Both the position numbers and the translations under genes were made by a program. A stretch of 62,704 nucleotides of DNA, the filler included, from Collodictyon triciliatum (Eukaryota): NCBI GenBank assembly GCA_043381765.1. It is 12 parts of 12 records of this genome, joined end to end, with 100 filler letters (N's around TTAATTAATTAA, not from the genome) between each part and the next. Parts side by side here need not be neighbours in the genome. Positions count along the whole stretch, not along the records: positions 26,864 to 32,240 come from JBHJMP010005252.1; 11 more parts are not named here. One strand, 5' to 3'. Positions 27,048 to 28,196 of the stretch are shown here, piece by piece. Below the pieces are notes generated by a model. It saw only the letters and a list, made by a program, of their open reading frames with translations. It did no database searches and was not told the DNA's origin. How positions within the stretch are numbered: position 1 is the stretch's first letter; each line of letters opens with the position of its first letter.

Positions 27048-28196
27048 CAGTGAAAAAATTTCCAAAAAAATCTATCGATTCTAAGAGTGACACATTTGTG
27101 AAATCTGGAAAAGGTCCTAATTTTATCAGATTAATACAAACATATCACTCTAACAATTCAAATGTGTTCAGCATATACTCACCACTAAATTGATTAAAAG
27201 CTAGAACGATAATTTGAACATTAGGTACTTTTCTGAAATCTGGAAGTGAGCCTAGATAGACAGAAAGAACATTAAATTACAGTTTTCAAAGCCAACATCC
27301 CCACGGTCCTGCACAAAATTGAAAGGAAGAATAAAAAAATATTAAATTACGGTTTTGAATATCAAGTCAGGCATAACTGTTAACTCACCGCTGAGAAGAT
27401 TTCCAGAAAAATCAAATGATTCAATAATAGGTAGATTATTGAAGTCGGGTATTGTTCCTACCAAAAATGAAGTTTTTTTTTTTTTACAAGAGCAGGAGCT
27501 AAAATTATTCCGCAAAGGACACTCACCACTTAAACGATTAGAAAAAAATCCTATGAAAAATACACTGGGGAGGTTGCTAAAGTCTGGCACAGTCCCTGTT
27601 ATTGAGATGTTATTATTTTAAAAGGCCACATCGATTGACTAATTTCAAAGTAAATATATACCATTGAGTCGATTCAATTGAAAGTTCAATGATCCTATAT
27701 TTGGGATATTTCTGAAGTTTGGAATGGTACCTAAGAGTTCATTCATTGGAATCAAGGAAAATTATTTTTTTTTATAAAAGGACAGATTGTGAAGGAGGGG
27801 AAATAAGAATAAAATAAAAGACAAAAAGACAAAAAGACAAAAAGACAAAAAGACAAAAAGATAAAAAGATAAAAAGATAAAAAGATAAAAAGATAAAAAG
27901 ATAAAAAGATAAAAAGATAAAAAGATAAAAAGATAAAAAGATAAAAAGATAAAAAGATAAAAAGATAAAAAGATAAAAAGATAAAAAGATAAAAAGATAA
28001 AAAGATAAAAAGATAAAAAGATAAAAAGATAAAAAGACAAAAAGACAAAAAGACAAAAAGACAAAAAGACAAAAAGACAAAAAAGGCAAAAAAGACGCCA
28101 TTTTCAAAACATTAAAAATATACTAACCAAAAATGCTTGTTTCAATAATTTGTATTTCTTGGATATTTGGTATTGCAGAGAAATCGGCAAGGTTCC
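27048..28196 (-). repeat. Six single-LRR exons, each exactly 69 nt, phase 1
   Basis: 28128-28196, 27662-27730, 27527-27595, 27389-27457, 27183-27251 and 27048-27116, all AG/GT bounded. Example product: GTIPDFNNLPIIESFDFSGNLLS. Confidence 0.92.

Follow-up and report, generated by a model that had tools for sequence, protein, structure and literature searches.

A 69-nt LRR exon array of Collodictyon triciliatum belongs to a large family of likely cell-surface receptor genes with variable cassette content

Several described gene families diversify proteins through repeats that can be gained, lost or exchanged. In brown algae, the type I LRR exon arrays of ROCO genes carry one LRR per symmetric exon, starting from GxxP, and the repeat number differs between recent duplicates that are nearly identical in their other parts; the selected sites are the concave positions 14, 16, 18 and 19 (PMC3341825, PMC11378527). 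The first codon of these exons is apparently split, as suggested by the reading 'nucleotides 3 to 71' (PMC11378527), and inverted and inactivated intronic LRR exons are reported for Ectocarpus (PMC3341825). The 90-bp exon LRR genes of another protist, Tetrahymena, likewise constitute a large family with exact-length, single-phase exons; they fall into young and old age groups, have been proposed to evolve by unequal crossing-over, and are associated with a retrotransposon and with germline chromosome regions (PMC6564038). The fungal NWD genes het-d and het-e exchange repeats within and between family members, vary in repeat number and have a few surface residues under diversifying selection; these repeats are WD40 units on NACHT proteins with established non-self recognition, and the account in PMC1805685 does not describe exon cassettes. 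Finally, lamprey VLRs combine constant ends with a variable LRR middle that is a patchwork even within modules; an incomplete gene is somatically assembled from flanking donors with the involvement of deaminases, and the mature gene has no cassette introns (PMC3308329).

The Collodictyon triciliatum genes that we describe here resemble each of these systems in part, and share the plant-type LRR and its N-cap with ERECTA-like plant LRR receptor kinases. ERECTA belongs to plant subfamily XIII-2, and ERECTA-type kinases follow a 72-nt LRR exon rule. While the 26-intron structure of this subfamily is conserved across land plants (PMC5296948), the number of Collodictyon cassettes varies. The closest parallel in functioning is with the brown-algal arrays. 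Here, too, each cassette LRR occupies a symmetric exon at the GxxP register, the first codon is apparently split in the same manner, and the positions under selection in a young clade lie on the same concave face. The Collodictyon cassettes are, however, 69 nt (23 aa) rather than 72 nt (24 aa) long, the predicted surface protein of the paralogs ends in a multi-pass membrane part rather than a ROC-COR GTPase, and the analysed loci contain no inverted or inactivated LRR exons. Unlike in Tetrahymena, the repeat length is 69 nt, and, in contrast to the fungal NWD proteins, a role in non-self recognition is only predicted. The family is neither a ROCO, nor a receptor kinase, nor a VLR. By domain order its nearest relatives are uncharacterised protist LRR + DUF7630 + PF06011-like membrane proteins. 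Our literature search, which covered mostly open-access papers, returned no account of an LRR-DUF7630-membrane family or of LRRs in the Diphylleia genome, and the choanoflagellate GPCR survey, in the part available to us, does not describe a family of this type (PMC12716839). One-repeat-per-exon diversification is known from brown-algal GTPases and ciliate LRR genes; here it occurs on a predicted surface receptor with an uncharacterised membrane module.

The window, i.e. the whole stretch of DNA that was analysed (62,704 nucleotides), consists of individual eukaryotic contigs placed one after another with N linkers in between, and genes adjacent in it are therefore not neighbours in the genome. 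The cassette gene lies on contig G000:C5252 (window 26864-32240; Table 1). Six exact 69-nt LRR exons had been proposed for this gene in a preliminary description, and all six are confirmed on the minus strand: each exon is bounded by AG and GT, and every junction is in phase 1, splitting a Gly codon. The peptide segments that had been quoted for the beta-strands are correct on translation, and the first LRRs do precede the array in one uninterrupted exon of 340 nt. The introns separating cassettes 1 to 6 measure, in order, 397, 66, 69, 137 and 66 nt. The intron of 69 nt that separates cassette 3 from cassette 4 (27526-27458, minus strand) is itself in frame and stop-free; since this is the case for 23 of 524 array introns, its open frame is probably due to chance.

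Table 1. Features of the cassette gene and of its contig, in window coordinates
Feature	Position	Strand	Evidence or remark
First coding bases, ATG split AT/G by a 57-nt GT-AG intron	29336..29337	-	putative
Predicted signal peptide exon	29201..29278	-	hydropathy peak 2.8 within first 30 aa
N-terminal exon (472 nt), Cys-containing segment and plant-type LRR N-cap	28672..29143	-	LRRNT_2 weak, E=0.021, below cut-off
Head exon (340 nt), first LRRs uninterrupted, phase-1 donor at end	28267..28606	-	LRR_1 E=5e-5
Cassette 1 (69 nt), conserved first-cassette type of family	28128..28196	-	AG-69-GT
8-nt simple repeat, makes up most of 397-nt intron	27816..28083	.	repeat content
Cassette 2 (69 nt)	27662..27730	-	AG-69-GT
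Cassette 3 (69 nt)	27527..27595	-	AG-69-GT
Cassette 4 (69 nt)	27389..27457	-	AG-69-GT
Cassette 5 (69 nt)	27183..27251	-	AG-69-GT
Cassette 6 (69 nt), last assembled	27048..27116	-	AG-69-GT
6-nt simple repeat at contig end; remainder of gene missing, another contig past N linker	26864..27000	.

Our ten-exon model comprises 435 codons and is free of stops. We infer the split start codon because no Met codon lies in frame ahead of the hydrophobic 5' exon and because the split yields an open model. Such a hydrophobic exon is present in 67 of the 80 paralogs tested, and 31 of these 67 also have no in-frame Met before it. The N-terminal Cys segment, the LRR N-cap and the head exon are all homologous to the family: the head is 43-52% identical in amino acids to the top paralogs, and the exon that carries the Cys segment and N-cap has a homologous counterpart in paralog L036. 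A search for the 3' continuation was negative: of the 20 contigs compared, all of which carry a membrane exon, not one starts with the matching 6-nt repeat. Similarly, a DNA search in which 40 of 1589 candidates were scored, mostly simple-repeat matches, revealed no close second copy or allele.

The gene has many relatives in its own genome. The head exon gives at least 153 matches (150 of 545 candidates scored) and one membrane exon gives 134 (137 of 137 scored), and we put the family at about 130 genes. Family expansion, which the preliminary description had named as a check on its reading, is thus borne out. Our analysis covered 109 loci on contigs, with a total of 632,764 nt. Of these we set aside 13 near-intronless ones, and scanned the remaining 96 for cassettes with an LRR profile that was seeded on 769 splice-bounded units and is blind to splice sites. 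In the region bounded by head and tail the scan yielded 869 LRR units, none of which contains a stop codon. The ends of 859 of these conform to AG-69 nt-GT or GC, and no unit was detected by the same profile on the opposite strand of the 632,764 nt, which argues that the 69-nt layout is not due to chance. GC donors are found in 20 of the 859 cassettes (loci L051-L130), three units look like 72-nt variants (two in C1224, one in C2357), and one donor, in C1826, has been lost. Genome-wide, a tight cassette pattern produces 541 exact matches as compared to none for the reversed control. It recovers 390 of the 859 known cassettes, from which we extrapolate a total of approximately 1,200; spacing the pattern at 66 or 72 nt gives five matches each, versus 398 at 69 nt.

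Complete arrays contain 3 to 18 cassettes, with a median of nine (65 arrays; 31 of the 96 loci were left out of this count, 15 by hand on account of unreliable anchors, and the others for want of a head or tail). At the peptide level 855 of the 859 cassettes are distinct, at the DNA level 858. Array introns have a median length of 64 nt (n=524), and the 66- to 69-nt introns of the flagged gene, which had been read as a sign of unit duplication, are therefore ordinary for the family. The constant scaffold and variable exposed face that had been ascribed to the cassettes are real but are not a special trait of the exon layout: the 78 LRRs of the 13 near-intronless paralogs vary as much or more, with an exposed-site entropy of 3.56 bits as compared to 3.13 in cassettes. 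These paralogs (L071-L083, on G000:C901, C627, C2833, C2253 and others) encode most or all of their LRRs in single frames of 500-950 aa, and several of them group with Diphylleia proteins; they lend themselves as a control for what the exon layout contributes. In a quick tree of 95 rows, built without the flagged gene and without loci whose tail or membrane-exon match is weak or absent, three label changes are needed, and the cassette genes may or may not go back to a single origin.

While the contig ends before the 3' part of the flagged gene, the paralogs show what follows an array. A single exon of approximately 430 aa encodes further LRRs, a Cys-rich DUF7630-like region and the first hydrophobic segment, and is followed by four exons of membrane segments; the membrane exon is present in 55 of the 56 loci with room for it. 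Extrapolating from these paralogs, the flagged gene would likely encode tail LRRs and a Cys-rich region of this kind, and about seven predicted transmembrane segments. The claim that it encodes an extracellular receptor gains from the predicted signal peptide and from the multi-pass membrane end of the paralogs; the analogy with ERECTA that came with it does not stand. A kinase end, with a single transmembrane segment and a Ser/Thr kinase, was rejected: the paralogous genes run through membrane exons to a stop codon, and the last exon, at 40-156 aa in 60 loci, leaves them with no kinase.

A profile of one membrane exon matched 83 proteins among 1.84 billion searched, and LRRs were found in 35 of the 36 such relatives scanned. 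Nine of the first ten relatives looked up are transcripts of Diphylleia rotans, the host lineage's nearest sampled relative, and the transcript-derived Diphylleia proteins keep the domain order of the Collodictyon family. The same order is found in proteins from Gefionella okellyi and Anaeramoeba ignava, and there is a weak match in Dictyostelium. Hydrophobic segments number about seven, with six to nine in nine relatives, and no GPCR Pfam family is listed among the matches. PF06011 (fungal TRP/FLC type), which we take to be the link to the Pkd2/FLC family, matches weakly in 11 of 44 relatives (scores shown are 16.5-23.1, against a curated cut-off of 28.5) and is annotated on 11-15% of the members of Atlas clusters. 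The nearest studied membrane module is that of fungal Pkd2/FLC (PMC9727806), to which the likeness is weak, with PF06011 below its cut-off; a TRP/FLC/Pkd2-like signalling output is thus only a lead and not a result. The membrane part has no sequence relative in the PDB, while the best PDB matches of the LRR arm of one relative are the ectodomains of the plant receptors FLS2, PEPR1 and HAESA/RLK5. Five relatives (P0002, P0010, P0021, P0026 and P0044) carry FG-GAP or NIDO domains on top of the LRR-7TM layout.

The flagged gene itself bears no sign of recent duplication. Its cassettes are 0.41-0.65 alike in pairs. Its intron flanks, at 0.20-0.44, resemble each other at about the level seen between genes (0.36), and no sampled paralog has a head more than 65% like its own. 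This speaks against the recent unit duplication that had been proposed for it. Family-wide, 616 of the 859 cassettes are without a neighbour of 70% likeness or more, which indicates that most arrays are old. By these measures the flagged gene is an old, 3'-truncated member of the family, with cassettes that are no longer close to each other or to those of sampled paralogs, and from this gene alone the earlier proposal of a variable binding surface would fail.

Younger members of the family document how arrays change. In a clade of 22 genes with heads linked at 82% or above, the number of cassettes ranges from 4 to 17 per gene, and the best cassette matches are non-collinear between genes with tails approximately 90% alike. 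Contig C5112 is collinear with C1323 along its entire 5,563 nt, and both carry 12 cassettes; likeness is 91-95% in the parts that flank the array but falls to 65-67% within it. They may be alleles or recent duplicates; the former is possible because another contig of the window also has a second copy of 91-94% identity. That contig carries a Kelch-containing gene (window 32400-37717), and its second copy, extending over approximately 5 kb of G000:C6375, is either a haplotig or a recent duplicate; there are, in addition, two partial copies. Between C3484 and C9983, likeness drops from 98% at cassette 1 to 74% at cassette 2 and then to the background of 47-61%. Variation in exon content, another check of the preliminary description, is thus seen between close paralogs or probable alleles, and the arrays are decoupled from their flanks, with C11680 and C6074, 95-98% alike over four cassettes, as a counter-example. 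Chimeric genes occur as well: C2684 has a young head, 94% like that of C7262, and a membrane end that the quick tree places in a distant clade, where C2149 groups with it. Exchange inside exons is implied too, as two multi-base variants located 12 nt apart are seen in all four combinations (11, 10, 7 and 8 cases). Short-range linkage decay was considered as proof of cassette-specific shuffling and rejected, since the decay is equal in the constant tail and in the cassettes.

We consider it probable that the flagged cassettes form the array of a gene which is truncated at its 3' end and belongs to a family of likely cell-surface recognition receptors. Unequal crossing-over, gene conversion and selection acting on the exposed face of the beta-strands would have diversified this family within the genome. 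Such arrays could have arisen when a single intron at the LRR Gly codon was copied along with its repeat, which would yield symmetric 69-nt exons automatically; the candidate single intron that two near-intronless genes have at the Gly register of the cassettes fits this origin by tandem copying of intron and repeat. The shared scaffold and intron homology would then let cassettes mis-pair within and between genes, and the symmetric phase would keep each product of mis-pairing in frame. Head, first cassette and tail would stay fixed because they cap and anchor the solenoid. The ligands are likely to be changing biotic surfaces, those of prey, viruses, parasites or kin, and the membrane module, weakly TRP/FLC/Pkd2-like, would relay the signal, possibly as an ion flux.

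The alternative that survives best, though we regard it as unlikely, is neutral repeat turnover, in which symmetric exons come and go freely, exposed sites vary for lack of constraint, and the proteins serve in structure or adhesion without selected diversity. The age of the flagged gene and of most arrays, the equal scaffold/face contrast in the intronless paralogs and a linkage decay that is not specific to cassettes are all compatible with it. For the young clade we compared 144 cassettes from 21 genes, which were chosen by their head exon alone and from which the near copy C11680 had been dropped. In these genes, change at the exposed positions outpaces that at synonymous sites and in introns: exposed pN is 0.477, as compared to a pS of 0.359, 0.275 at four-fold sites and 0.26 in introns. 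Corrected exposed ratios range from 1.55 to 2.38, with gene-bootstrap lower bounds of 1.37-2.09 and all intervals above 1. A codon model fitted to 46 non-overlapping cassette pairs, picked on intron flanks alone, gives a maximum-likelihood omega of 2.55 for the exposed positions (13, 14, 16, 18 and 19), 0.36 for the convex side and 0.14 for the core (LRT 51.6), and an exposed omega of 2.13 with 62 pairs instead; relatedness among the cassettes means that the pairs do not count as independent, and such estimates can be raised by multi-base differences. The excess of substitution at the xxLxLxx positions that the preliminary description had looked to is therefore present in the young clade. The tail of the same genes, in contrast, is under purifying selection, with an omega of 0.24 for the tail exon in 17 young genes and of 0.08-0.32 for its exposed sites, and not one of the 869 units is a broken, stop-bearing cassette. 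Neutral turnover is thus disfavoured for the young clade, while it may still apply to the present state of the old flagged gene.

Quite unlikely, in our estimate, is combinatorial splicing, by which each gene would give rise to many receptors through cassette skipping, as reported for the brown-algal ROCO genes. Any skip would keep the frame, given that all junctions are phase 1 and all cassettes 69 nt, and splice variants are reported for Ectocarpus ROCO (PMC11378527). However, 15 comparisons of Trinity isoforms from seven related Diphylleia genes, i.e. from another species and within 90% clusters, revealed no case in which a 23-aa repeat had been gained or lost internally. The Diphylleia transcripts were rejected as direct proof regarding splicing in the cassettes, as the best local matches of those looked up, at 46-70%, represent different genes.

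We regard as very improbable a programmed, VLR-like assembly, in which expression loci would receive copies of donor cassettes, delivered by a dedicated machinery in the course of a cell lineage. C1323 and C5112 do keep their ends while the middle is replaced, and the patchwork does extend into exons, as such a mechanism would have it. The genes, however, are complete in the genome, with 65 complete arrays and no orphan reservoir seen in the analysed loci, unlike the incomplete germline gene with flanking donors of the lamprey. In the 632,764 nt there are no inverted or stop-bearing cassettes and one lost donor; 398 of the 541 genome-wide pattern matches (approximately 74%) fall in the analysed loci, leaving little space for a big orphan reservoir; and the substitution spectrum has no single-type mutator bias. 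Least credible of all is an assembly artefact, with the young arrays and discordant pairs being short-read mis-joins: while the assembly is fragmented (14,576 contigs) and many contigs terminate in simple repeats, all but one of the 859 cassettes differ in DNA, mosaic breakpoints lie within approximately 12-24 nt, which would be below usual assembly overlaps, and the shared parts of the discordant pairs differ by 3-9% and are hence distinct sequences.

Returning to the reading that we favour, diversification of a receptor family by recombination and selection, a bolder extension of it is, in our view, doubtful. According to this extension, a free-living, deep-branching protist would hold a surface recognition repertoire of about 1,200 LRR cassettes, changing so fast that clones, and even the two haplotypes of a single cell, differ in it. 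The repertoire would be coupled to an undescribed signalling module with seven membrane passes, possibly of the channel type; this would amount to immune-like or kin/prey recognition outside animals, plants, fungi and brown algae. The coexistence of intronless, old-cassette and young-cassette members means that the family can be used to test whether the exon layout speeds diversification, as well as what use a variable recognition repertoire is to a unicellular eukaryote.

Other contigs of the window carry further repeat-containing genes. The cassette gene had also been described as the extracellular counterpart of a TPR cassette system; we found no TPR cassette array in the window. An NLR-like gene (16836-20807, plus strand) combines DUF4062, NACHT/AAA and TPR_12, with its TPRs in one uninterrupted ORF, and outside this ORF there is one lone 126-nt TPR-like candidate exon (7564-7689). 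A reverse-transcriptase fragment (15271-15801, plus strand; RVT_1 E=1e-4) is located at a contig end. Finally, an ORF at 7953-9917 (plus strand) contains pentapeptide repeats, approximately four 135-nt WD40 repeats (81% identity) and Sel1 repeats, and the high internal likeness of its WD40 repeats recalls fungal genes of the het-e type.
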